From the NCBI GenBank assembly GCA_964534285.1, contig CAZHQV010000003.1:1-37004 (forward strand): 37,004 bases of DNA, read 5' to 3'. This stretch comes from an uncultured Dehalococcoidales bacterium. Its GTDB lineage: Bacteria; Chloroflexota; Dehalococcoidia; GIF9; AB-539-J10. Under the pieces are notes generated by a model. The model was not told the origin of the DNA. It was given only the letters and a program-made list of their open reading frames with translations, and did no database searches. Both the position numbers and the translations under genes were made by a program. Within the stretch, counting starts at the first letter, position 1. Each line of letters opens with the position of its first letter. Shown one piece after another: positions 12,795 to 32,762 of the stretch.

Positions 12795-13064
12795 TGAAGG
12801 CTCGAAATCTGTATCAGAGGAATGCGAGGTGGTGAACAGTGGCACTGTCACCCCTTGGCCGGAGACCCAATCCTGCGACGAAGCCTCGAGCTATACTCAA
12901 ACCTGACTGACCGGGAGATTTGTAGTTCATTAGCGACTGCTATGATTGGGCTCACAGTGACTGCTGCACCTTGGCCTGACGATGAATTATGCCAGTTGGG
13001 GCTAAGCGACGGGCCGCAAAGTCAAATGACATACCACACTGAAGAATTCCGTTTCGGGGGGCAC

Positions 13065-13190
13065 ATGAAAGGTTATCGAACTCCGTCCTGGTTCCGCTCG
13101 AAGGCACACCTGAGAGACAAACAGGTGAAAGCCCAGCGCGTGAAACCCAGAGCCCATAGGTCGGGGAAAGGAAAACGAGAACCGCGGTAG
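13065..13190 (+). CDS. small basic protein (41 aa)
   Basis: MKGYRTPSWFRSKAHLRDKQ...GKGKREPR with a G-rich RBS; it is the 3' part of track ORF 12822..13190. Confidence 0.45.
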   Translation: MKGYRTPSWFRSKAHLRDKQVKAQRVKPRAHRSGKGKREPR

Positions 13191-13220
13191 GCGAGCTTGG
13201 TTCTCTGCGGGAGGTTGGAT

Positions 13221-13532
13221 ATGAGCGACGTTTTTGATGAAGCCCAGGCACTACTACAGTGTAAATCCTGTCCCTGGTATAAGAATTGCGTTATGCCAAT
13301 GCGGGTGACCGAAGAAGATTTAAGGAGGGAACTTGAGGCGTCCATGCCCGGTACCTCGATCTCCGGAGCCCCTTACGAAATATCGCAGCTTCTGTCAACA
13401 ATGGCAGCAGCAGCTCAAAACTCCCTTCTTGAGGGCTGTCCGGTATTTATTAATAGACTGAGAAACAACCCTAAACTCGCGCAGCGGATAAAGAAGATGA
13501 TGCAGGAATGGTCAAAGGAGGACGAAGAGTAA
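13221..13532 (+). CDS. hypothetical Cys-motif (possible metal-binding) protein
   Basis: RBS GGAGG; CxxCPWYxxC...GCP. Confidence 0.7.
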   Translation: MSDVFDEAQALLQCKSCPWYKNCVMPMRVTEEDLRRELEASMPGTSISGAPYEISQLLSTMAAAAQNSLLEGCPVFINRLRNNPKLAQRIKKMMQEWSKEDEE

Positions 13533-13555
13533 GCTAGCAAGGGGGGCAGCTAATT

Positions 13556-14101
13556 GTGAGAGAGATGACTATTGATAGCATAAGGGTTAGCCTGGAGAAT
13601 TACCAACATGTGGTACTCCTGAAGGAGCAGGCAGGTGAGCGGTATCTTCCAATCTGGATTGGCCGCGCTGAGGCCGATGCCATAGGAAGAAAACTTCGAG
13701 GAGCCGCTGCGCCCAGACCTTTAAGCCATGACCTGTTATGGTCAGTCATCAGCGTCTTGGGGGCCAGTGTCGAGTCCGTTATCATTGATGGCCTCAAGGA
13801 CGATGCTTTCTATGGCGAAATCATTCTAAACACCTCAAAAGGAAGAACTGAGATTGACTCCCGACCCAGCGACGCCTTGGCACTGGCAGTAAGAGCCGGG
13901 GCACCAATCTTTGCTGAGGACACGGTCCTAGATGAAGCCGGCCTCTTAGTAGACACGGAAACCGGCGAAGCTACTCCACAAGAACCGCCTCAAGGGAAAA
14001 ATATTGGCGAAGAGGAGTCAGGGGGGATGTCTGCTTTCACTGACTTTGTCGACAACCTAAATATGGATGACCTCGGTGAAGCAAGAGAGGAAGATGAATA
14101 G
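13556..14101 (+). CDS. bifunctional nuclease (DUF151/BFN) family protein
   Basis: LPIWIG..EA.AI, RPLSHDL, IDSRPSDALALAVR. Confidence 0.92.
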   Translation: MREMTIDSIRVSLENYQHVVLLKEQAGERYLPIWIGRAEADAIGRKLRGAAAPRPLSHDLLWSVISVLGASVESVIIDGLKDDAFYGEIILNTSKGRTEIDSRPSDALALAVRAGAPIFAEDTVLDEAGLLVDTETGEATPQEPPQGKNIGEEESGGMSAFTDFVDNLNMDDLGEAREEDE

Positions 14102-14146
14102 AGTGCATCATCCCAACAAAAAGAAACACACGATAATGGAGGTAAT

Positions 14147-14761
14147 ATGCTGACAGTGACTGCAAGTGCAAAAGAAAAGCTTGAAGAGGTTCTGCAAAAG
14201 CAGGCCGAGCCCGAAAGGGCTATCAGGATTATGCGTTCCCCTTCGCAGCCAGACCAATTAGAGCTGACTTTGGACAAACAGAAGGAAGGAGACCAGGTAG
14301 TGGAGACTGAAGACGGCGCAAAGCTATTGCTTGTAGGGGCTGATTTAGCTCCTGCACTGGACGGAATAGTAATGGACTACCAGGAAACACCCCAAGGCTC
14401 AGGCTTCACCATGTCGAGGATTGCTCCAGAAGCCGAGATGAGCAAGGTGATCGAAGTGACGGACGAGAATTTTGAGGAAGTGGTATTGAAATCGAATCTT
14501 CCCACCGAGGTCGACTGCTGGGCACCATGGTGTGGTCCGTGCCTCATGGTTTCTCCAATATATGACAAGCTCTCAGAAGAATACGAGGACAGATTCAAAT
14601 TCTGCAAGCTGAACGTGGATGAAAACCGCCAGACTGCTACAAGATATCAGATTATGAGCATACCGATGCAATTGTTTTTCAAAGATGGCGAATTGGTTGA
14701 CAGCATCTTGGGGGCAGTTCCCGAGGCCCGGATTCGGGCCAAGGTTGAGGAGTTCGTATAG
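14147..14761 (+). CDS. HesB-like domain fused to thioredoxin
   Basis: N-terminal ~97 aa resemble 10467..10748; C-terminal thioredoxin domain with WAPWCGPC and SIP. Confidence 0.85.
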   Translation: MLTVTASAKEKLEEVLQKQAEPERAIRIMRSPSQPDQLELTLDKQKEGDQVVETEDGAKLLLVGADLAPALDGIVMDYQETPQGSGFTMSRIAPEAEMSKVIEVTDENFEEVVLKSNLPTEVDCWAPWCGPCLMVSPIYDKLSEEYEDRFKFCKLNVDENRQTATRYQIMSIPMQLFFKDGELVDSILGAVPEARIRAKVEEFV

Positions 14762-14853
14762 CCTTTGTCGGCTGCCCAGCTGAAACCGTCAATCTGCCTC
14801 AAGCGTGGATAATGACATCAAAGGTGAACTGGAAAGCAAAGGAGGTAAGAGCC

Positions 14854-15075
14854 ATGCCAATCTACGAATACCAGTGTACTACCTGTGGAGAGAAGTTTGA
14901 AGTCCGTCAGTCCATAGGTGAGGATGGTTCCAAGCTTACTTGCCCTAAATGCAATGCCGAACATCCGAAGAGGTTGTTGTCTTCATTCTTCAGCCCGGCC
15001 TCAAGCACGTCTGAGCCTTCGGAGATAAGCTGTCCCACCTGCGGCACAGGCACCTGTGGGCTCCCGCCAATGTAG
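14854..15075 (+). CDS. FmdB-family zinc-ribbon protein
   Basis: RBS AAAGGAGG; MPIYEYQC..CG..FE...CPKC and a Cys-rich tail. Confidence 0.9.
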   Translation: MPIYEYQCTTCGEKFEVRQSIGEDGSKLTCPKCNAEHPKRLLSSFFSPASSTSEPSEISCPTCGTGTCGLPPM

Positions 15076-15167
15076 CGAAATGCTGCACTCGGGGTGAGGC
15101 AAGGTGAGTCAGGGCTCAAGGCGCTCGTGCCCGAAACGAACCGTCAAAACAAGTAAGGAGGAATGAT

Positions 15168-15488
15168 ATGTTGTTCTTATTCAAAGCTGAAACGAAAGGT
15201 GCATTTCCACTTCCAATCGAGGAGTGGATGAAACTGGTGGTGAAGCATGTGGAGACCCTCGTCAGCTATAAGCAGCAGGGAAAAATCTTGGCGGGAGGTC
15301 CATCGGCCGATGCAAAGGGGGCATATTTCATTCTGGATGTGGGATCGATAGAGGAACTCCAGGGGTTGGTGACTCAACTGCCGCTGTTTCCTTTCAGCGA
15401 CTCGGAGCTCATCCCGCTAGTCAGTCTTGAGCGGGCCATGGAGTCCGCTAAACAGGCCGTGGCACAATCCCAAGAATCGAAGAAGTAG
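15168..15488 (+). CDS. muconolactone isomerase/YCII-like protein
   Basis: RBS AAGGAGG; GKILAGG...ILDV.S.EEL..L...LPLFPF...PL. Confidence 0.75.
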   Translation: MLFLFKAETKGAFPLPIEEWMKLVVKHVETLVSYKQQGKILAGGPSADAKGAYFILDVGSIEELQGLVTQLPLFPFSDSELIPLVSLERAMESAKQAVAQSQESKK

Positions 15489-15801
15489 TATAGAAGGAAC
15501 TAAGCCTGACCCCGGGCCTCACCTTGGGTGGCTGACAGCCTATGAAAGCGGATAAGAGGCTTCGTAGGCTCCGCACGAATTGGCTATGGGCGCCTTCTTC
15601 CATCGGCGCAATGTTATGTGGCATCTCCACGGGAAGAATGTATCAGAAGGAGGCCACAAATGTGAGTAGAGAGGGTGTTTAGGAATAGATGATGAACTGT
15701 GAGATAGTCGCGAGTCCTAGCAGAGGGCCCCTGCCCGCCGATGCTCGATTAGCGGGGATCCACAAACGCCAAACAGCTGTCAGTAGAAGGAGGCGATGAA
15801 T

Positions 15802-15969
15802 ATGCCACCGGAAGAGAACAAGGCCATTGTTCGCCGCTGCGTACAAGAGATTTGCAGCAAGGGGAACTTCGCTGCATACGAATTGGGGGACTATTTCCAA
15901 CAATTCAAAGGACAATTCTCCTGCATCTGGGGGAGTTACCCCATTTACCTGCAAGAAGGTATGATTTAG
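15802..15969 (+). pseudogene. truncated SnoaL-like/ester cyclase gene (5' fragment)
   Basis: RBS AGAAGGAGG. MPPEENKAIVRRCVQEICSKGN resembles the family N-terminus; similarity is lost after about 28 codons. Confidence 0.55.
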
Positions 15970-16001
15970 TATGTACGCACAGCAATTACCAGGAGGGGAT
16001 G

Positions 16002-16805
16002 ATGCAAGAGAGGGCTGAAAAGAAAAGAAGACTCTTAATCGTGGACGATGAACCTGATTTTGTCGGAGATGTGAAAGGTGCTCTAGAGAGTGAGGTAACT
16101 GAGGTCATTGCCGTCGTAACTAAGAGCGAGGCTGAGCAAATAGCGAAGACTACAGGCCTTGATTTAATAATTCTGGGTACCCTGACACCACGTGGAGAGG
16201 CATTCGCGTTGCATCAATGGTTGAGAGCCAACCCAAAGACTAAGGACCTGCCGCTCATAGTCATGGATGCACCGCCGGAGAGGCAACTTGTCAAGGGCTG
16301 GAGAAGGGACGAGGCAGCTTTGATGGAGGCTGAGGAGTACCTAACCAAGCCGGTTGAGTCAGGCGCACTAGCCACCAGAGCGCAGTCGATTCTGGCAAGG
16401 GCAGCCGAACGCATAAGGGTGCTGATAGTGGATGACCACTCGGTAGTTAGGGAGGCCATTCAGGCCGTACTGGCGCCTGAAAAAGATATCGAGGTAATAG
16501 GCGCAGCCGAGAATGGGAAGGTGGCATTAGAGAAGGTGAGGGAACTAGCCCCCGATATCGTGATAATGGATATCGTCATGCCTGAAATGGATGGGTTTGA
16601 AGCGACCAAACGGATATACAAAGAATATCCACAAACAAGGGTCTTGATGCTGTCTCAGTACGACGGTGGGGAGAATATCCTTGCTTCTGAGCGGATAGGA
16701 GCTGGCGGATTTGTTTCCAAGCGGGCCACCAGTTCTGAGTTGGTGAAAGAGGTGAGGGCCATCGATTACCTGGGGAAGCCACTGCAAAGGCCTGCTGAAT
16801 GTTGA
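16002..16805 (+). CDS. tandem receiver-domain protein (atypical REC + canonical REC)
   Basis: RBS AGGAGG. REC1 has DLIILG (Asp absent), REC2 has DIVIMDIVMP. No output domain. Confidence 0.88.
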   Translation: MQERAEKKRRLLIVDDEPDFVGDVKGALESEVTEVIAVVTKSEAEQIAKTTGLDLIILGTLTPRGEAFALHQWLRANPKTKDLPLIVMDAPPERQLVKGWRRDEAALMEAEEYLTKPVESGALATRAQSILARAAERIRVLIVDDHSVVREAIQAVLAPEKDIEVIGAAENGKVALEKVRELAPDIVIMDIVMPEMDGFEATKRIYKEYPQTRVLMLSQYDGGENILASERIGAGGFVSKRATSSELVKEVRAIDYLGKPLQRPAEC

Positions 16806-16978: not shown

Positions 16979-17674
16979 ATGCAGTTCATCAGAAGGTCGC
17001 AAGAAACATCGAGGCACTGGCGTGGCCTAGTTAGCCGGTTGGCTTTCCTGGCTGCAAACACGGTCTGGAGAGAGGCAGCTATTTCAAGACGGCTTAGAGA
17101 GAGGAAAGGTGGGAGCGTTCTCGATGTGGGTTGTGGGAAGCATAGTGCGCTACTTTCGATAGCTAAGCATTACAAATTTGAGCTAACGGGGCTTGACATC
17201 TTCGAGCCTTATCTCAAAGAAGCAAAAAACAAGGGGGGTTATCGGAGTGTCGTTCTTGCCGATGCAAGGCAGCTTCCGTTCAAAGATAAGAGTTTTGAAG
17301 CAGTAGCATGTATTGAGGTTATTGAGCACGTTGGAAAGGAAGGTGGAGAGAAGCTCCTTAATGAACTTGAAAGAATTTCGAGATGGCTAGTATTGATAAG
17401 CACCCCGATTGGAGAATCTGTGCAGCATGCTTATGATGGAAACCCTTACCAAGAACACAGGTATATCTGGAGTGTTGAAGAGTTGGAGGCGAGGGGTTTC
17501 GAGATGAGAGGAAGAGGGCTAAAGGGTTTGGCGGGAGAGCATTGGTGGGGCTTGTTACCTTACTTTTTGAGACCAATACAGTATGTTATCGAAATCATCG
17601 GAACATCGATTTCCTATTCTTTCCCCAAAATAGCCTCAGGTGTAATCGCGTGGAAGGAGACAGGCATATCATGA
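16979..17674 (+). CDS. class I SAM-dependent methyltransferase
   Basis: VLDVGCG, GLD, DARQLPF.D.SF, EVIEH. Confidence 0.88.
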   Translation: MQFIRRSQETSRHWRGLVSRLAFLAANTVWREAAISRRLRERKGGSVLDVGCGKHSALLSIAKHYKFELTGLDIFEPYLKEAKNKGGYRSVVLADARQLPFKDKSFEAVACIEVIEHVGKEGGEKLLNELERISRWLVLISTPIGESVQHAYDGNPYQEHRYIWSVEELEARGFEMRGRGLKGLAGEHWWGLLPYFLRPIQYVIEIIGTSISYSFPKIASGVIAWKETGIS

Positions 17675-17853
17675 CTGGCCTATGACTCTATCGTATGACT
17701 GCGGGTAGATGCTCCCTAGACCAACGACGGTCTAGAACAGGCAGTCGAGGCAACATTTAGACGTTTGTTCAGCCTTAGTTAGCAGAGAAGCCCTTGACAA
17801 GAGGCATCCGCTGTTGCTGCGGAAAGCGCCAGACAATAGAATTGAGGTGTGAA

Positions 17854-18567
17854 ATGGGAAGGATCAAAGCATTTGGCAAATATGTGCCTGTCACCAAGGG
17901 TGGCCAGGTCAAGTTCTACCTTCCGCTGGAGAGATGCGCTGACATAGACGCGCTAAGTGCCAGCGGCTATGAGGTTGCCGAGGAGTGTCAGGATCTCATA
18001 GGAATTGTCAGGCTAATAAGAGAAGCTGAGAGTCGGCAAGCCGTGTCAGAGCGGAGAAAGCGCAAGTTTGTCACCGCCGCTCTTGCTGACTTTTCCCAGG
18101 AGGTAGGGAGCATAGACTTGCTTTGCCCGTACTGTCTAGGCCGGATTGAACGGAACTGCCCGGCTCATGAGGGTAAGGTTATCTGTGGCTGGTATGACGA
18201 GATAAGCAGCTGCGATGGCTCTGCGTCCTATAGTGTGGATAGAGCCAACTTTGTGCTTGGCATGCCGGATGTGGAAAGATACACCTGCTCTGCCCGGGGA
18301 ACTCAATTAGAGCTTACAGTTTACGACCTGCACTATCTCAGGGAAGAGATAGACCGCAGAACTAGAATAATCGAAGGAGACCAGACCTCAGCCTGCGACC
18401 TAGAGCTGGCCAGGATATTTCCGCTGAGAGTGAGCTTGGAGAGGACGAGACGTAGCTTCAAAGAGCTTGTCCGGGAACTCATGCAGAAAGATGCCATAAG
18501 CTGGCTGAACACCCTTAGCCTTGGGGACCTGGGAAGCCTGCTCGAGGGGGCGACCAAAAGAAGCTAG
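17854..18567 (+). CDS. hypothetical protein with CxxC...CxxH...C motifs
   Basis: RBS GAGGTG before ATG 17854; long ORF ending just before a double terminator. Confidence 0.65.
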   Translation: MGRIKAFGKYVPVTKGGQVKFYLPLERCADIDALSASGYEVAEECQDLIGIVRLIREAESRQAVSERRKRKFVTAALADFSQEVGSIDLLCPYCLGRIERNCPAHEGKVICGWYDEISSCDGSASYSVDRANFVLGMPDVERYTCSARGTQLELTVYDLHYLREEIDRRTRIIEGDQTSACDLELARIFPLRVSLERTRRSFKELVRELMQKDAISWLNTLSLGDLGSLLEGATKRS

Positions 18568-18607
18568 CAGAGTCTATGACAAAGGGAAGGTAGCAGTCGC
18601 AAAAAGA

Positions 18608-18687
18608 AAGGGGAGTTCAATCCTACACCTTGGGATTGAACTCCCCTTGAACACAAAAAGGGGCTACCTATCCGCCCCTTTTTGTGT
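18608..18687. terminator. two tandem hairpins (bidirectional terminators)
   Basis: 16-bp stem (18608-23/18633-48) and 14-bp stem (18651-64/18674-87) with A/T tracts, between convergent genes. Confidence 0.8.
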
Positions 18688-18711
18688 GTGGCTATTCTCG
18701 GCTATTGCGTT

Positions 18712-19968
18712 CTATGCTACTCCTACGGCTTCCGCTTCCTCTTCGGCTACCGTTTCGCCTTCGGTTTCCTCTTCGGCTTCCCCTTCGGCCTTGGGCTTCG
18801 CCTTCCGCTTCCGCCTGGGCTTTCCTTTCCTTTCCGCTTCAGTTTCGCCTTTGGCTTCGGTTTCCGCTTCGGCCTTGGCTTCCTCTTTCGGTAGAAACAT
18901 CGGCATGACAAGACAACGGTGACTGTCAACGGTGAGGAGCATGGCCGATTTCTCGTCAACTATGCTCAAATCCACCATGCCACCACAGGCCTTCAGCGCG
19001 ACTAGCAACCGCTTGCCTTCAACGGCTATAGTAGCTTCGCCCGTAGTTTCCGCGGCTATTTCCGCCTGTCCTCTTTCGCCCTTGGCTTCTACGACTATCT
19101 TACCTTCGGCTACGGTCAAGGTAAGCGGGCGGTATAGAGGTTTCAGGCTATCGTCATACCAGATAGTCAACAGGCTTCGGCTTGCCCTGATTAGCTCTTT
19201 CGAGTCAAAGCTAGCAGTAGCCGTAAACTCTGTCGGTATGATTTGCTCGTAGTTGGGATAAGTCCCGTCCTGGCTTCGGAAACGGTATCTAATTAAATCC
19301 GTTTCCACTACGAGAAACTTTTCCACGATAGCGCCGTTATCGTTTGCCTTGTCCTCAATGCCGAGCTTCACCCGTCTTGACTTCCGCAAAGCTGGAATCA
19401 AGCCTTTCAATTCACTAGCGTATATCAAGGCTTCCGCTTCGCCCTCGTCAAAGCTGAGGTTAACTTCGCTCAGGCTAAAGCCATCGCAACCTGTAAAGGT
19501 TAGCCTGTTGTCCTTCTGGACAACCTGGGCGCATTGGAGAACAGGGCGCGCTTGGTCACTGGAAGTGAACGGCAGAACCTTTGACAGCGCTTCGGCTAGC
19601 TCAACGCTACCGACATTCGGCATGACGGCGTTTCTAGGCGAAACGTGGACTTCGGCATAGCTATGAGGAGTCTTGTCCTTAATCCACGCTCCATCGGGAA
19701 TATAGCCTTGGTGACTACCACAAACTACCTTGGCGGCCTTTTCGGCAACCTGCGATTCGCCAGCGCTGCCGTTGGCAGGTACTACCTTGACGATATTGCT
19801 ACCTGCCAAAGCCTTCAGGTAAGCGGTGAAGCCTCTTCGCCCTACAGTGACATCGTTGAACACGGCTAACCTTTCGGCTAGCACCGTTGACAACGCTCCT
19901 ACCAGTAAGTCCTTATGGGCGACAAAGCCAATGCCAGAACGCTTGCCTTCTATATTCACTTGCTCCAA
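18712..19968 (-). CDS. divergent DNA polymerase III beta-clamp (DnaN)-like protein with charged tail
   Basis: SSDQARPVL, GCDGFSL (cf. ATDGHRL), DGTYPNYEQIIP, CLVMPM. First domain is divergent; ~60-aa E/A/K/R tail; not next to dnaA. Confidence 0.8.
   Translation of the reverse strand: MEQVNIEGKRSGIGFVAHKDLLVGALSTVLAERLAVFNDVTVGRRGFTAYLKALAGSNIVKVVPANGSAGESQVAEKAAKVVCGSHQGYIPDGAWIKDKTPHSYAEVHVSPRNAVMPNVGSVELAEALSKVLPFTSSDQARPVLQCAQVVQKDNRLTFTGCDGFSLSEVNLSFDEGEAEALIYASELKGLIPALRKSRRVKLGIEDKANDNGAIVEKFLVVETDLIRYRFRSQDGTYPNYEQIIPTEFTATASFDSKELIRASRSLLTIWYDDSLKPLYRPLTLTVAEGKIVVEAKGERGQAEIAAETTGEATIAVEGKRLLVALKACGGMVDLSIVDEKSAMLLTVDSHRCLVMPMFLPKEEAKAEAETEAKGETEAERKGKPRRKRKAKPKAEGEAEEETEGETVAEEEAEAVGVA
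18720..18890. repeat. imperfect hexamer repeats (TTCGGC/TTCCGC) encoding the clamp tail
   Basis: Visible directly; encodes EA/ET/EG dipeptides. Confidence 0.7.
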
Positions 19969-20131
19969 TGTATCACCCCCCTTAATCGTATTCGGCCAGG
20001 CTAGCCATAACCTGGCTATTGATTAGAGCAAGAGGTTTATTGAAGCTGTCGAGGTTACTTGATAGCTGCTGTCCGCTAGCCTATCTTTCCCCTCTACTGT
20101 AGTAATGATTTTGGGAAGGCAAATTGATACA

Positions 20132-20599
20132 TCAAAACAAGGCTTTCTGCGCCTTGGCTAGCTCTTTTCGACGGGCACGGGTTAAATAGGTTTGCTCGTT
20201 TTTGTTGAGCGGCTTGCCTGCCACCCTCTTATGAGCAATGCTGACTAGCCGCCTCGGACATCCCAGAAGCCATCTTTTGGCATCCTGCCACAGCTCCAGG
20301 TCTATGGCTTTGTCATCCGCTAGCGTTTCCCACAATTCGGTACTATTGCCTTCATCATCCTGTATCTCGACATTGAGGCTTAGCATGGTCAACACTCGCT
20401 TTTGTCGATGCCAATACTCCATCGTCACATAGCTAGCGACTCTAAGCATTGACGCTTCGGTAAATGGCTTATCCCCGTTGTTGCTGGCTAGCTCGGCAAG
20501 CCTGAGTACGATGTCATGCCTTAAATCTTCCCTATCCTGATACCTTGCCTTGTGTTGAAACCTGTCGGCAATTTGACTATACTTCTGCCAGTCTAGCAT
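20132..20599 (-). CDS. small sigma-70-like protein with abbreviated region 4
   Basis: RBS GGAGG. DREDLRHDIVLRL and MEYWHRQKR (region 2-like), LSLNVEIQDDEG...ETLADD (region 3.2-like), YLTRARRK. Confidence 0.6.
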   Translation of the reverse strand: MLDWQKYSQIADRFQHKARYQDREDLRHDIVLRLAELASNNGDKPFTEASMLRVASYVTMEYWHRQKRVLTMLSLNVEIQDDEGNSTELWETLADDKAIDLELWQDAKRWLLGCPRRLVSIAHKRVAGKPLNKNEQTYLTRARRKELAKAQKALF

Positions 20600-20704
20600 T
20601 GTGGAGTCCCTCCCTTTGTTAGATTTCCCTGGTTAGCTATTCCCTAGCCAGGGATTTTGTTACCCTGCTAGATAGGCAGGCGTTCAGGCTTTCGGCTTTG
20701 CCAC

Positions 20705-20724
20705 CTATTCAATTGTTAAGGTGC
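20705..20724 (-). promoter_or_regulatory. rrn boxA-like motif in the leader
   Basis: Minus strand GCACCTTAACAATTGAATAG resembles rRNA-operon boxA elements and is followed by two hairpins. Confidence 0.45.
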
Positions 20725-21456
20725 TACCAGATACTCATATCTGTTACGAGTATTGTGCTTTACAAAAGATGCTTTTGAAAAGGAAAGGAAGTAATTACTT
20801 TTTTGGTCTAGATTCAAAACCGAGAAATTCTTGTCTCGCCATTCGGGAACAAGATGAGAGTTGAACTAGACTGTTACGGTAAGAGTGTAGGTGTTCTTGT
20901 CCGATTGCCTAACGAAGCAGGCAAGGACCAATGAACCCGCTTTTGAGGAGCCTATTAGTAGAAGACATGGGCTATTGAAAGCGAGAGCCCCGGCAATAGA
21001 AAGGGCGCAGAACTGGGATGTGGGAACCAGCTCTAGCTTGAGAGACGTTGAAGCTATCTCATCTCTTGTGAAATTCCTCCCTATCAGTCAATTCCGAGAG
21101 TCATTCTGATAGGACTACATGCCTGCTGGCTCACCATATTTCGCAATCAACAACCATGTCACAGGCTGAGCTTCTTGTAGAACAATCTCTCGAGGGAGCT
21201 GACAACGTTCTCGAGGCGGTGACCACACTTAGACTGGGTATGTCCCTAGCCGCGATGGCTGCAGTCTTCGCCAGGAAAAGAACAAAGCATATGCAGAGAA
21301 AGGGATTTCGAGTGCAGCCAGACGCTAGGTTAATTGACAGATCGCATGCAACATTGAACTCTCACACTCACCTTATGCGTGGATTGAAGAAGGAACCAAC
21401 CGGGCCGCCCATTCACGGACAGTGTATCAATTTGAGAGTCGCAGTTGATCAATGGG

Positions 21457-21585
21457 AAGAATCCTCATGCCATTGCCTTGGGTAGATTGGGTGGTCTGTA
21501 AGGTGGCAAGGCTAGAGCTTCGAAGTTATCTCCTGAACAAAGAAAAAAAGCCGAAAAAGCTGCATTGAAAAGGTGGCATAAATAG
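21457..21585 (+). pseudogene. small basic GRLGGLKGG-type protein with a nonsense codon
   Basis: KNPHAIALGRLGGL*GGKARASKLSPEQRKKAEKAALKRW; TAA at 21499 where Lys is expected. Confidence 0.6.
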
Positions 21586-26215: not shown

Positions 26216-26830
26216 TTAGTCCCCGTCTTGCCAAACGCGATCATAGTCCTGGTGTAAATCCTCCACTGAATACTGTAGATAGACGGATGTCGTAGTTGGC
26301 GACTGGTGACCCAGTATCTTCTGTAGCCGCTCTATGCTCATGCCTCTCTTGATGCAGTGGACTGCAAATGAATGGCGGAGGTGATGAGGATGGAGCTTCC
26401 TGTGCTGCGACACGAAGGGGTCGCCAATCTCTCTTATGCCTGCTCTCCTTCCCAGCTTCCAGAAGATCTGGTCTACCCGTTGCCTCGTAATAGGAAATAG
26501 CAAATCACCTTTGTATGGGAACTGTTTCCGCCATTCCAGGTATTCTTTCACCATGTCCAGCGTGCCTTGGTCAACGGGAACTCGCCTTCTCAGTTCCTTG
26601 ACCTTGCCATCCTTCTTCCGCATCTTTTGGATCCTGATGGCGATTGCGCGATTCTCAAAGTCGACGTCGGATAGCTTTATGCCAATGAGCTCCGATACCC
26701 TAATGCCGGTACGCCACAGGATTCGCACCAGGAGCTTGTCTCTGCAGTTGGAAGCGGCATCAAATAACTTCTCTACCTCATCAACGTCGAGGTATCCCTT
26801 CAGATCTCTGATTGGAGTCACTTCAGGCAT
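26216..26830 (-). CDS. short tyrosine recombinase (catalytic domain only)
   Basis: TGIRVSE, HPHHLRH, LGH, TTSVY all intact; 204 aa. Confidence 0.92.
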   Translation of the reverse strand: MPEVTPIRDLKGYLDVDEVEKLFDAASNCRDKLLVRILWRTGIRVSELIGIKLSDVDFENRAIAIRIQKMRKKDGKVKELRRRVPVDQGTLDMVKEYLEWRKQFPYKGDLLFPITRQRVDQIFWKLGRRAGIREIGDPFVSQHRKLHPHHLRHSFAVHCIKRGMSIERLQKILGHQSPTTTSVYLQYSVEDLHQDYDRVWQDGD

Positions 26831-31582: not shown

Positions 31583-32578
31583 TCACCTCAGACCAAGAAG
31601 ATCCGCTGGACTCGCCTTTGTGTGAGCCTCAAGGGCATCCTCCATTCCCAGAGTTGCCACATAGTGCCTTACCATCCTCAAATCCGAATGACCAAGAAGG
31701 TATTGAAGGTTAAATGGATTTCTATCGGCTCGGAGGAAGTTAATAGCAAATGTATGCCGAAAGCGGTGGCAATTCCCGCTACTTTTTACTCCCGCCCTCT
31801 GTTTGAGTCGCCTTACCATTATCTGGATGCCATCTGATCGCAAAGACCTTCCCTCTTCCGTTAGCCATAGGTCTTGTCTTCCATCATCCGGCCTATGCAT
31901 AAGATAGCGCCAAAGTGCTTTCTGTGGCGTTGCCCCAATTCTAACCACCCTCTCCTTGTCTCCCTTGCCTCGAATCTTAATCCATCCTCGCTCAGTGTCT
32001 ATGTCTTCGAGCCCGACACTGGCGATTTCACTTACTCTCAACCCAGTGTCTAGCAGCATCAAAATGATTGCTCTGTTCCGACTTCCGAGAAATCTAGCAT
32101 TATGCTGGTAATCATAATCGCACACTGCCAGCATCCTAGCCACTTCCTCTGGTGTATAAGGTTGTACGACCTTTGCTTTGGGATTGGACATCTTCACTCT
32201 TGCTATTGGGCTCTCAGTGAGGAAGCCTTCTCTGACGCACCAATTAAAGAAGGCTTTGAGAACGGCATAATAGTGATGGACTGTAGAATGTGAAGCTCGC
32301 CTTTCGCTCGATTCCGAGCCGTTGCCGTCAAGCCCCCAGCGACGCACTTCGCTCGTAACATACGCCAAGAATTCCCGTATGTTCCATTCTGTGATGAGTC
32401 GCACGTCGTGAGGCCAACTTTGCTGGTCGCAATACCACAAGAAGCGTTGGAGATTCCCTTCGTAGTACTCTACCGTTCTGGGGCTTTTGCCATCGGTCCT
32501 CTCTGTTAGCACAAAGCCTCTTACCAAGGATCTTAACGACGTCCCTGGTCGCGCCTCCGATTTGACATTTACTACCAT
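31583..32578 (-). CDS. tyrosine integrase (SAM-like + catalytic domains)
   Basis: TGLRVSE, GKGDK, HRFRH, LGH, RHY; starts 108 bp after the tRNA-Val CCA. Confidence 0.95.
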   Translation of the reverse strand: MVVNVKSEARPGTSLRSLVRGFVLTERTDGKSPRTVEYYEGNLQRFLWYCDQQSWPHDVRLITEWNIREFLAYVTSEVRRWGLDGNGSESSERRASHSTVHHYYAVLKAFFNWCVREGFLTESPIARVKMSNPKAKVVQPYTPEEVARMLAVCDYDYQHNARFLGSRNRAIILMLLDTGLRVSEIASVGLEDIDTERGWIKIRGKGDKERVVRIGATPQKALWRYLMHRPDDGRQDLWLTEEGRSLRSDGIQIMVRRLKQRAGVKSSGNCHRFRHTFAINFLRADRNPFNLQYLLGHSDLRMVRHYVATLGMEDALEAHTKASPADLLGLR

Positions 32579-32686
32579 CAGTCATTATGCAGCCCTGCGT
32601 CCTATCAAACAGGTGGTCAAGATTGTATTTGATCACCCTTAGTTTGTCCGACAATCAGGAGGTCTAAAGACCTCATCTCATACGTA

Positions 32687-32762
32687 TGGTGGGCAGTAGA
32701 GGACTTGAACCTCTGACCTCCTGTGTGTAAGACAGGCGCTCTAACCACTGAGCTAACCGCCC
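32687..32762 (-). tRNA. tRNA-Val(TAC)
   Basis: Cloverleaf; anticodon arm CCTGT-CTTACAC-ACAGG; GTTCAA T-loop; CCA encoded. Confidence 0.97.

Follow-up and report, generated by a model that had tools for sequence, protein, structure and literature searches.

The stretch analyzed here, called the window throughout, comprises 37,004 nucleotides (nt) of contig CAZHQV010000003.1 from an uncultured Dehalococcoidales bacterium. Between positions 18563 and 20654, it carries a two-gene cassette in which the palindrome GCTAGC is strongly concentrated. One gene is sigma-like; the other, downstream of it on the same strand, encodes a DnaN-like sliding clamp, and a structured leader lies between them. Mobile elements of Dehalococcoidia that integrate at tRNA genes have this combination of sigma-like gene, structured leader, and DnaN-like clamp as their conserved core. 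The features of the locus are as follows, with stems in base pairs (bp).

18563..20654, minus strand: the whole cassette, an island of low short-palindrome content.
20132..20599, minus strand: sigma-like gene, 155 amino acids, with four GCTAGC copies (20157, 20319, 20432, and 20487), from the open reading frame (ORF) call and Sigma70_r2 matches in its family.
18712..19968, minus strand: DnaN-like clamp paralogue, 418 amino acids, TTG start, with three GCTAGC copies (19210, 19595, and 19877), from matches to phrog_947 and TIGR00663.
20058..20088, minus strand: hairpin in the leader of the clamp-like gene, with the core G-CU-A-GC(G) and the GCTAGC copy at 20075 (covariance model R1, 26.7 bits, E 3e-6).
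19742..19772, minus strand: the same hairpin again, here within the clamp-like ORF at about codons 66-76, core GCTGGC (R1, 30.5 bits, E 2e-7).
19994..20016, minus strand: second leader hairpin, with GCCAGG and CCTGGC arms, holding the GCTAGC at 20000 (sequence, local fold, and family leaders).
20626..20654, minus strand: inverted repeat located 27-55 nt ahead of the sigma-like start (inverted-repeat scan); relatives have a CCCTAGC...GCTAGGG hairpin there.
18563..18568, no strand assigned: GCTAGC over the TAG stop of the convergent ORF 17794-18567, 144 nt past the clamp stop (sequence and ORF list).
18608..18687, no strand assigned: two perfect hairpins with 16-bp and 14-bp stems, between the convergent genes (inverted-repeat scan).

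The paired hairpins at 18608-18687 are likely a bidirectional terminator bounding the cassette.

GCTAGC was found ten times in the cassette, at 18563, 19210, 19595, 19877, 20000, 20075, 20157, 20319, 20432, and 20487 (span 18563-20492). These coordinates had been listed in a preliminary description of the sequence, and all were exact on recount. Seven copies lie in the two genes, where, as described, five of the eight Leu-Ala pairs are spelled xxG-CTA-GCN and two of the six Ala-Ser pairs GCT-AGC. Copies also occur between genes, two in the 163-base spacer and one overlapping the TAG stop of the convergent ORF. For the remainder of the window, about nine copies had been counted by eye; the recount gave ten, for a total of 20, and the strong local excess stood.

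The genomic background was taken from the window's own assembly (301 contigs, 2,356,440 bases, 94% complete), which holds 674 GCTAGC sites, or 0.286 per kilobase (kb), compared with 0.253/kb expected from independent bases. When the genome was scanned in 2-kb frames at 500-base steps (about 3,700 frames), the cassette locus scored 10, 9, and 8, while the best frame elsewhere scored 5; the Poisson probability of at least 10 copies at an expectation of 0.59 was 8e-10. In an unbiased hexamer scan of the cassette against the genome, GCTAGC ranked first, and the other top hexamers were GAA-GCC repeats encoding the Glu/Ala tail of the clamp-like protein. Outside the cassette the word is ordinary, with 664 copies observed against 695 expected under a maximal-order Markov model (ratio, 0.96). 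An earlier likening to HIP1, the genome-wide iterated palindrome of cyanobacteria, was contradicted both by this ratio and by the absence of spread regardless of locus, one 2-kb frame holding ten copies and the next best five. The next-densest GCTAGC stretches of the genome were on contig C146 (6 in 3 kb) and contig C10 at 12940-16183 (7 in 3.2 kb).

Two codon-aware null models were applied. In the first, synonymous codons were permuted within each gene; the clamp-like gene held 3 GCTAGC where 0.48 were expected (P 0.007), and the sigma-like gene held 4 where 0.80 were expected (P 0.002). Drawing the codons from genome usage gave expectations of 0.43 and 0.46, respectively. In the second, Metropolis sampling of synonymous permutations was used with the avoided 4-mers, defined below, held at or below their observed count. 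With palindrome avoidance imposed in this way, the expectation was 0.55 for the 3 copies of the clamp-like gene (P 0.0175) and 0.72 for the 4 copies of the sigma-like gene, a count reached in 0 of 400 samples; jointly, the two genes held 7 copies against 1.4. Because both nulls were exceeded, the enrichment in the window is neither a codon-usage effect nor a side effect of word avoidance, and the excess first noted by eye thus persisted under codon-preserving shuffles. Among the homologous clamp genes described below, 104 copies were found against 34.5 expected with avoidance imposed, nearly all of the excess being at fixed positions. A by-product of palindrome avoidance was therefore ruled out as the source of the excess, which remained with avoidance imposed both in the family and in the window.

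The sigma-like/clamp-like pair was present in 5 of 40 related genomes, with identities of 49-60% for the clamp and 44-65% for the sigma-like protein, and the five modules held 6, 8, 3, 8, and 0 GCTAGC copies. A pattern scan located the pair at 75 public-genome loci, nearly all titled Dehalococcoidia or Chloroflexota, and on six IMG/VR contigs. None of the window's neighbors of the pair was conserved across the loci compared, no third gene was conserved alongside it in six loci compared, and the flanks were unrelated between loci. The cassette is thus a discrete unit, as had been proposed, its two genes being kept together in the 5 genomes and at the 75 loci while their neighbors are not. Two viral contigs were annotated and carried integrases, a methyltransferase, and an ArdC-like protein, with no recognizable virion genes. 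Over the 75 loci, the cassettes held 178 GCTAGC in 146.5 kb (1.21/kb), compared with 101 in 538.7 kb of flanks (0.19/kb), and the density peaked at 2-3/kb between -250 and +500 relative to the clamp start. Homologous modules therefore do show the excess, and the enrichment recurs beyond the window.

Several observations concern the representation of these loci in assemblies. Fourteen public contigs end within the first 25-250 clamp-like codons, the depth of metagenome contigs peaks at 19872-20029, 20504-20661, and 19556-19634, and in the DNA contigs of four runs, parts of the cassette were common to many related contigs. The most conserved cassette parts seem to be common to co-resident elements, breaking assemblies. 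Five truncated copies comprise the sigma-like gene, the leader, and the first 55-80 clamp-like codons, after which they diverge; these may be recombination junctions or the result of decay.

The cassette is also a sharply bounded 2.5-kb island purged of nearly all restriction-type short palindromes. When 131 kb of cassette was compared with flanks, the median ratio was 0.21 for 61 palindromic hexamers and 0.83 for 2016 non-palindromic hexamers. GAATTC, GGTACC, and GCATGC were absent, where the flanks gave expectations of 39, 20, and 19. Nine 4-mers were classed as avoided (GATC, GGCC, CGCG, CCGG, GTAC, TCGA, TGCA, CATG, and ACGT), and under codon permutation of 128 genes their z-scores ran from -9 to -25. 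The counts for five of them were 38 against 275 expected (GATC), 176 against 653 (GGCC), 27 against 183 (CGCG), 114 against 280 (CCGG), and 79 against 233 (GTAC). The density of the nine 4-mers drops from 23-26/kb to 5-12/kb between -1000 and +1500, the G+C (GC) content being constant. In the window itself, it is 12-15/kb in the cassette versus 24-33/kb in most other ORFs, and by gene the clamp-like sequence held 15 avoided 4-mers against 36.6 (z -4.5) and the sigma-like sequence 7 against 13.0 (z -2.2). Similar depletion was seen in the primase (z -3.1) and in one integrase (z -3.2), and the other 23 ORFs tested failed to reach z -2. The two 4-mers most avoided by the host genome, GATC (0.59) and GGCC (0.67), also lead in the cassette.

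Three palindromes ran in the opposite direction, with cassette/flank ratios of 7.6 for GCTAGC, 3.2 for CTTAAG, and 3.1 for TATATA. Under codon permutation, the palindromic hexamers except GCTAGC numbered 453 against 1167, whereas GCTAGC numbered 124 against 53.5; CTTAAG was found 113 times against 36 expected from the flanks, and 95 times against 49 under the codon null. Taken as a whole, the purge looks like restriction avoidance, with CTAG-centered words as the exception.

Between -1000 and +1400 relative to the clamp start, 183 family copies of GCTAGC were counted, 113 of them at four fixed positions: -93 to -85 (28 copies), +195 to +207 (54), +350 to +371 (22), and +488 to +494 (9). Hence, the proposal of a selected word stood insofar as the excess beats codon-aware nulls, but a diffuse family-wide bias was not found. 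The first two positions are one and the same hairpin, located in the clamp leader and again at codons 67-73, with the core G-CY-A-GCG / YGC-RG, of which GCTAGC is the U-A form. The core is laid out as a bulged G, C-Y paired with R-G, a bulged A, and G-C-G paired with Y-G-C around a loop of 3-5 nt; it is conserved, and the outer stem varies freely.

The leader hairpin was examined in 69 sequences, six loci having been dropped by eye (anchor or fold off) and one being without the anchor. In this set, 83.7% of cells were paired, compared with 32-41% with slid partners, and compensatory changes were observed at 15 of 18 pairs. The pair that decides between GCT and GCC (19-31) was UA in 33 sequences, CG in 32, and UG in 1. 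The 64 sequences of the coding hairpin were picked by a motif pattern in which part of the core is fixed, which leaves the outer pairs and the covariation as the only independent evidence; here 95.8% of cells were paired, compared with 25-44% when slid, and the deciding pair was UA in 50 and CG in 9. In the nine GCC coding cases, the compensating partner change turns CAG (Gln) into CGG (Arg), and both hairpins have either GCT or, together with a compensating change, GCC. The frequency of G-U pairs points to folding of the sense strand. Cross-pairing between the two hairpins was considered and ruled out, as leader and coding copies often differ in allele (GCC versus GCT).

Covariance model R1, built from 131 hairpins with the window excluded, matched exactly two sites in the window and the whole genome, 20058-20088 and 19742-19772, and found no further copies in either. 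The hairpin at 19742-19772 is outside the ten copies because the core there is GCTGGC in the window. An Rfam scan of 17500-21500 returned no family match, only two sub-threshold chance matches. The fixed position at +350 to +371 corresponds to Glu-Leu-Ala, for which GAG-CTA-GCN is the preferred spelling; of about 40 loci with those residues, about 24 use it (by eye). CTTAAG, for its part, was observed at conserved Leu-Lys codons just after the coding hairpin (+147 and +231 to +234 from the clamp start, loci L015-L089).

Other leader features were shared across loci. The clamp start is preceded at a distance of 106-119 nt by a TATATA box (66 occurrences), after which come the second hairpin and a strong AAGGGGGTG ribosome-binding site; in the window, the second hairpin is followed by a strong Shine-Dalgarno sequence and the TTG start (19966-19968). 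The clamp-like start is ATA in most loci, with ACG, CTG, ATC, TTG, and GTG also used and ATG in one, and the AAGGGGGTG ribosome-binding site is 7-9 nt from it. Rare start codons behind a strong AAGGGGGTG hint at tight translational control of the clamp-like gene. In relatives, the sigma-like gene has its own upstream hairpin with CCCTAGC / GCTAGGG arms, and its start reads ATG-CTA-GAC-TGG in most of the 35 loci listed, with the rare CTA kept (window 20588-20599). An upstream (G/A)TCTA(G/A)C is able to pair with GCTAGAC across the sigma-like ribosome-binding site.

The window is the extreme of the cassette family in scattered GCTAGC, of which few other members have many copies. Outside the fixed positions, five modules have 4 copies and the window has 8, where about 1.3 were expected (P 6e-5, or about 0.005 corrected for 76 modules). 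Two of its ten copies are at fixed positions (20075 and 19595), three more are shared with close relatives (19210, 20432, and 20319), and five are private. Several gains are likewise private to single lineages, and the extra copies arose via synonymous choices. Where tripeptides are identical within the window's sub-clade, GCTAGC was kept in 32 of 45 comparisons and other hexamers in 2306 of 5467 (42%), suggesting that the scattered copies are kept, with the caveat that the pairs compared are not independent. Modules without GCTAGC were found in hosts at 0.061, 0.082, 0.061, 0.076, 0.142, and 0.233/kb, and the hosts of the window's sub-clade are at 0.21-0.30/kb; the exceptions are modules with GCT in both hairpins in hosts at 0.03 and 0.087/kb. 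Host tolerance as the sole cause was rejected, since host density tracks module content only loosely.

With regard to the encoded proteins, residues of about 120-360 of the clamp-like protein match DNA polymerase processivity factors (phrog_947, E 1.2e-21). The match to TIGR00663 (dnaN) scored 50.2 bits, below the cut-off of 137.65, and covered profile positions 131-365 of 367 only, and that to Pfam DNA_pol3_beta scored 17 bits, below the cut-off of 24.4. Residues 1-120 had no profile match. A separate canonical dnaN-like match is located elsewhere in the genome, on contig C70. Clamp-like proteins have a Glu/Ala/Lys-rich low-complexity tail derived from 12/18-nt repeats (window 18712-18901), which ends in V-G-V-A in the window and in a conserved V-A-V-A in many of 51 complete ORFs.

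The wider sigma-like family comprised 337 representatives at E <= 0.001. Sigma70_r2 matched 9 of 60 members scanned (best E 5e-5), together with a few helix-turn-helix matches; in a smaller set, it matched 1 of 6, and the Atlas has a Sigma70_r2 cluster at rank 20. Profile comparison of the sigma-like protein with the window's RpoD-like protein gave no match. The C-terminus reads Q-K-A-L-F, which is similar to the beta-clamp-binding motif, whose consensus Q-L-x-L-F is usually C-terminal (PMC4549789). A Q-x-x-L/M-hydrophobic sequence was at the exact end of 27 of 66 sigma-like ORFs and of 45 of 150 representatives, many of them fragments, and within the last 8 residues of 43 of the 66 ORFs (hand count). 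Complex prediction for clamp residues 1-365 with the sigma-like protein (score, 0.14; mark, 0.32) was evidence in neither direction. A PDB sequence search gave chance helical-repeat matches only.

The surrounding element contains a DnaG-type primase, two integrase genes, one of them beside tRNA-Val, and a PIN protein. The tyrosine integrase directly adjoins tRNA-Val at 32687-32762 (window 31583-32762), and this side is likely the end at which the element integrates; another integrase-like ORF, a shorter one, is found at 26216-26830. A search for an att repeat gave one 16-nt near-repeat only, at chance level. Identity with the ssrA-type Dehalococcoides islands was considered and rejected, the gene set differing from that in the available part of the published account (PMC3146451). 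The left contig end (21-3398), outside the element, carries a large N6-methylase/Eco57I-type (type IIG-like) restriction-modification gene. CGATCG was near-absent in several Dehalococcoidia genomes (3, 7, 20, 25, and 34 copies in 1.1-1.7 megabases) and tends to be abundant in genomes with few GCTAGC sites, a pattern that suggests two distinct restriction landscapes.

The excess of GCTAGC fits best as the signature of nucleotide-level selection on a portable two-gene cassette. In its specific form, to which a probability of roughly 0.4 was given, this reading takes GCTAGC to be a cis-acting word that is under selection in a restriction-proofed cassette and is linked to RNA structure or recognition. 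The hairpins would be RNA operators or folded single-strand signals controlling the clamp-like gene, and GCTAGC would be both tolerated and favored because it is a recognition or pairing element left uncut by local restriction systems. The sigma-like protein may in turn be tethered to a beta-type clamp via its Q-K-x-L-F tail, as T4 gp55 is to gp45.

A number of results weigh against this reading. The hairpins serve equally well with GCCAGC, so the word itself is dispensable there. The hairpin motif holds just one of the ten window copies, and eight are unaccounted for by the structures described; moreover, 46 of the 76 modules have no copy outside the fixed positions. GCUAGC-GCUAGC pairing was not found in the 2.2-kb sense transcript, in which the best mean pair probability was 0.18 and the minimum-free-energy partners were local, nor was any hairpin context or pattern of local accessibility shared by the GCTAGC sites. 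The family sigma-like genes as a class held 20 GCTAGC against 19.4 expected with avoidance imposed, so that the enrichment anticipated at homologous sigma-like/clamp loci held for the clamp genes and failed for the sigma-like genes. The window's sigma-like protein had no Pfam, PHROG, or NCBIfam match, and the label is plausible yet weak, because the Sigma70_r2 and helix-turn-helix matches come from the wider family. As to the purge, the nine avoided words were chosen from the same data, and the modules are kin to each other, so that family-wide z-scores overstate independence; the 4-7 fold effects and the sharp boundaries stand whichever way kinship and word choice are weighed.

The first alternative is that the copies are double-stranded sites for a dimeric protein or a methyltransferase, forming an epigenetic or occupancy mark that would time element expression or replication in the manner of the GATC clusters at oriC and dnaA of Escherichia coli. 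GCTAGC is a perfect 6-bp palindrome, its copies fall within genes as well as outside them and flank the promoter-like TATATA on either side, and it was gained independently in several lineages. It is also the only strongly enriched palindrome in palindrome-purged DNA, as would be the case for a protected or used site. N6/N4 and Dam-like methyltransferases are encoded in the genome, although their matches reveal no specificity, and methyltransferases are found in the same elements of relatives. However, no longer consensus flanked the hexamer in 35 sites, and its spacings showed no helical phasing. The genome, 94% complete, gave no match to a C5-methyltransferase, nor was any enzyme known to be specific for GCTAGC identified. 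The tendency of GCTAGC-free modules toward GCTAGC-poor hosts, which would favor such a mark, is broken by the two exceptional hosts already mentioned, and most family members hold just 2-4 fixed copies. This alternative was regarded as possible but doubtful.

A second alternative, judged unlikely, denies the word any function of its own: codon pairs and hairpins would fix a few copies, and the rest would be inherited chance gains in a lineage prone to CTA and GCT/AGC, the cluster having been noticed because the sequence was scanned for oddities. In agreement with this, five of the ten window copies are at homologous codons of close relatives, and synonymous sites in the sub-clade are unsaturated, identical residues sharing their codon in 54.5% of cases. 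In the family, GCTA/TAGC 4-mers and every sequence one letter away from the word are enriched 2-3.7 times, and outside the fixed positions there is no family excess, only about 19 of the 104 clamp copies lying there against 34.5 expected. Against it, the window count is twice the next highest in the genome, and both the seven in-gene copies and the eight off-position copies exceed their expectations even with protein, codon usage, and palindrome avoidance kept in the former case and after correction in the latter. The retention of GCTAGC above that of other hexamers also tells against it.

A bolder form of the selection reading, which must be considered speculative and has little probability assigned to it, is that the cassette is a restriction-proof "establishment" module of a new class of Dehalococcoidia element, combining first-entering DNA, a clamp-tethered sigma, hairpin start signals, and GCTAGC as a recognition word. 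The cassette would be the first DNA made double-stranded and expressed after entry, and only 2.5 kb would be purged of restriction sites for that reason. The sigma-like factor would be tethered through its Q-K-x-L-F tail to a beta-type clamp that the element encodes and that is loaded on newly primed DNA; transcription of the element would thereby be coupled to its replication, as T4 does with its late genes. The folded single-strand or RNA signals that start the process would be the bulged GCYAGCG hairpins, and GCTAGC would be kept and multiplied as the recognition word, possibly methylated, of that machinery.

Import of the module from a replicon that is GCTAGC-rich throughout, an origin suggested in the preliminary description, is very improbable: the cassette is mobile and its word usage is unlike that of the host, but 3 copies lie in the roughly 12 kb that make up the rest of the element, with its primase, integrases, and other ORFs, up to tRNA-Val at 32.7 kb, the flanks of the 75 loci are as sparse as stated above, GC content is constant across the island, and no examined host exceeds 0.30/kb. 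A small remainder was reserved for readings beyond those listed.

Among the closest known systems is the late-transcription module of phage T4, which consists of the small sigma gp55, the sliding clamp gp45, and gp33 (PMC7892883, PMC2988020); phage Mu is known to use the beta clamp (PMC12867686). The sigma-like/clamp pair recalls gp55/gp45 by resemblance, as it places a small sigma-like gene beside a sliding-clamp homologue on a mobile element, with a short hydrophobic tail resembling the clamp-binding type on the sigma-like protein and an A/T-rich TATATA upstream of the clamp gene. It differs in that the cassette clamp is DnaN-like (beta type), whereas gp45 is PCNA-like, and in that no counterpart of gp33 was found beside the pair in the six loci compared. 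Its host is also a Dehalococcoidia integrative element without recognizable phage structural genes.

Restriction avoidance in phages and plasmids offers a second comparison. DNA that enters first is expected to show a localized purge of restriction sites (PMC12455610), and the leading regions of Enterobacterales plasmids were described, in the part of the report available, as "not consistently depleted" (PMC13478746). As in phages and plasmids with such avoidance, 4-bp and 6-bp palindromes of the cassette are strongly depleted against codon-aware expectation in mobile DNA, but the depletion is limited to a sharply bounded 2.5 kb rather than the whole replicon, and GCTAGC, and more weakly CTTAAG, run the opposite way. 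The likeness to HIP1 extends to a short G+C-rich palindrome written largely via synonymous codon choice, whereas GCTAGC is in excess only locally, in one cassette. At oriC and in the dnaA-dnaN region of Escherichia coli, clusters of GATC are read by Dam and SeqA; the cassette similarly has, next to replication genes, a locally clustered palindrome that could be methylated, but methylation, a reader protein, and an origin would be conjectural for it.

The hairpins have parallels of their own. The coat-protein operators of MS2 and PP7 are protein-binding hairpins with a bulged purine, and integron attC sites and ssoA origins are folded single-strand sites with extrahelical bases. The cassette hairpin shares with these an imperfect stem whose 5' arm has a G and an A, both conserved, as single-base bulges, and a conserved core within a freely covarying outer stem, one cassette copy being inside a coding region. 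It differs in having no Rfam match and is a candidate RNA or single-stranded DNA signal.

A portable sigma-like/clamp-like pair seems not to have been described in the literature, and the available part of the account of Dehalococcoides islands shows nothing similar (PMC3146451). The pair is widespread in Dehalococcoidia mobile elements, and three layers of selection are superimposed in its 2.5 kb: a bounded palindrome purge, covarying hairpins, one of which dictates protein sequence, and one enriched palindrome. The cassette may be a clean natural example of the localized restriction-site avoidance predicted by models of first-entering DNA. If the clamp tether is true, the coupling of transcription to a clamp would reach beyond T4-like phages to integrative elements with a beta-type clamp.

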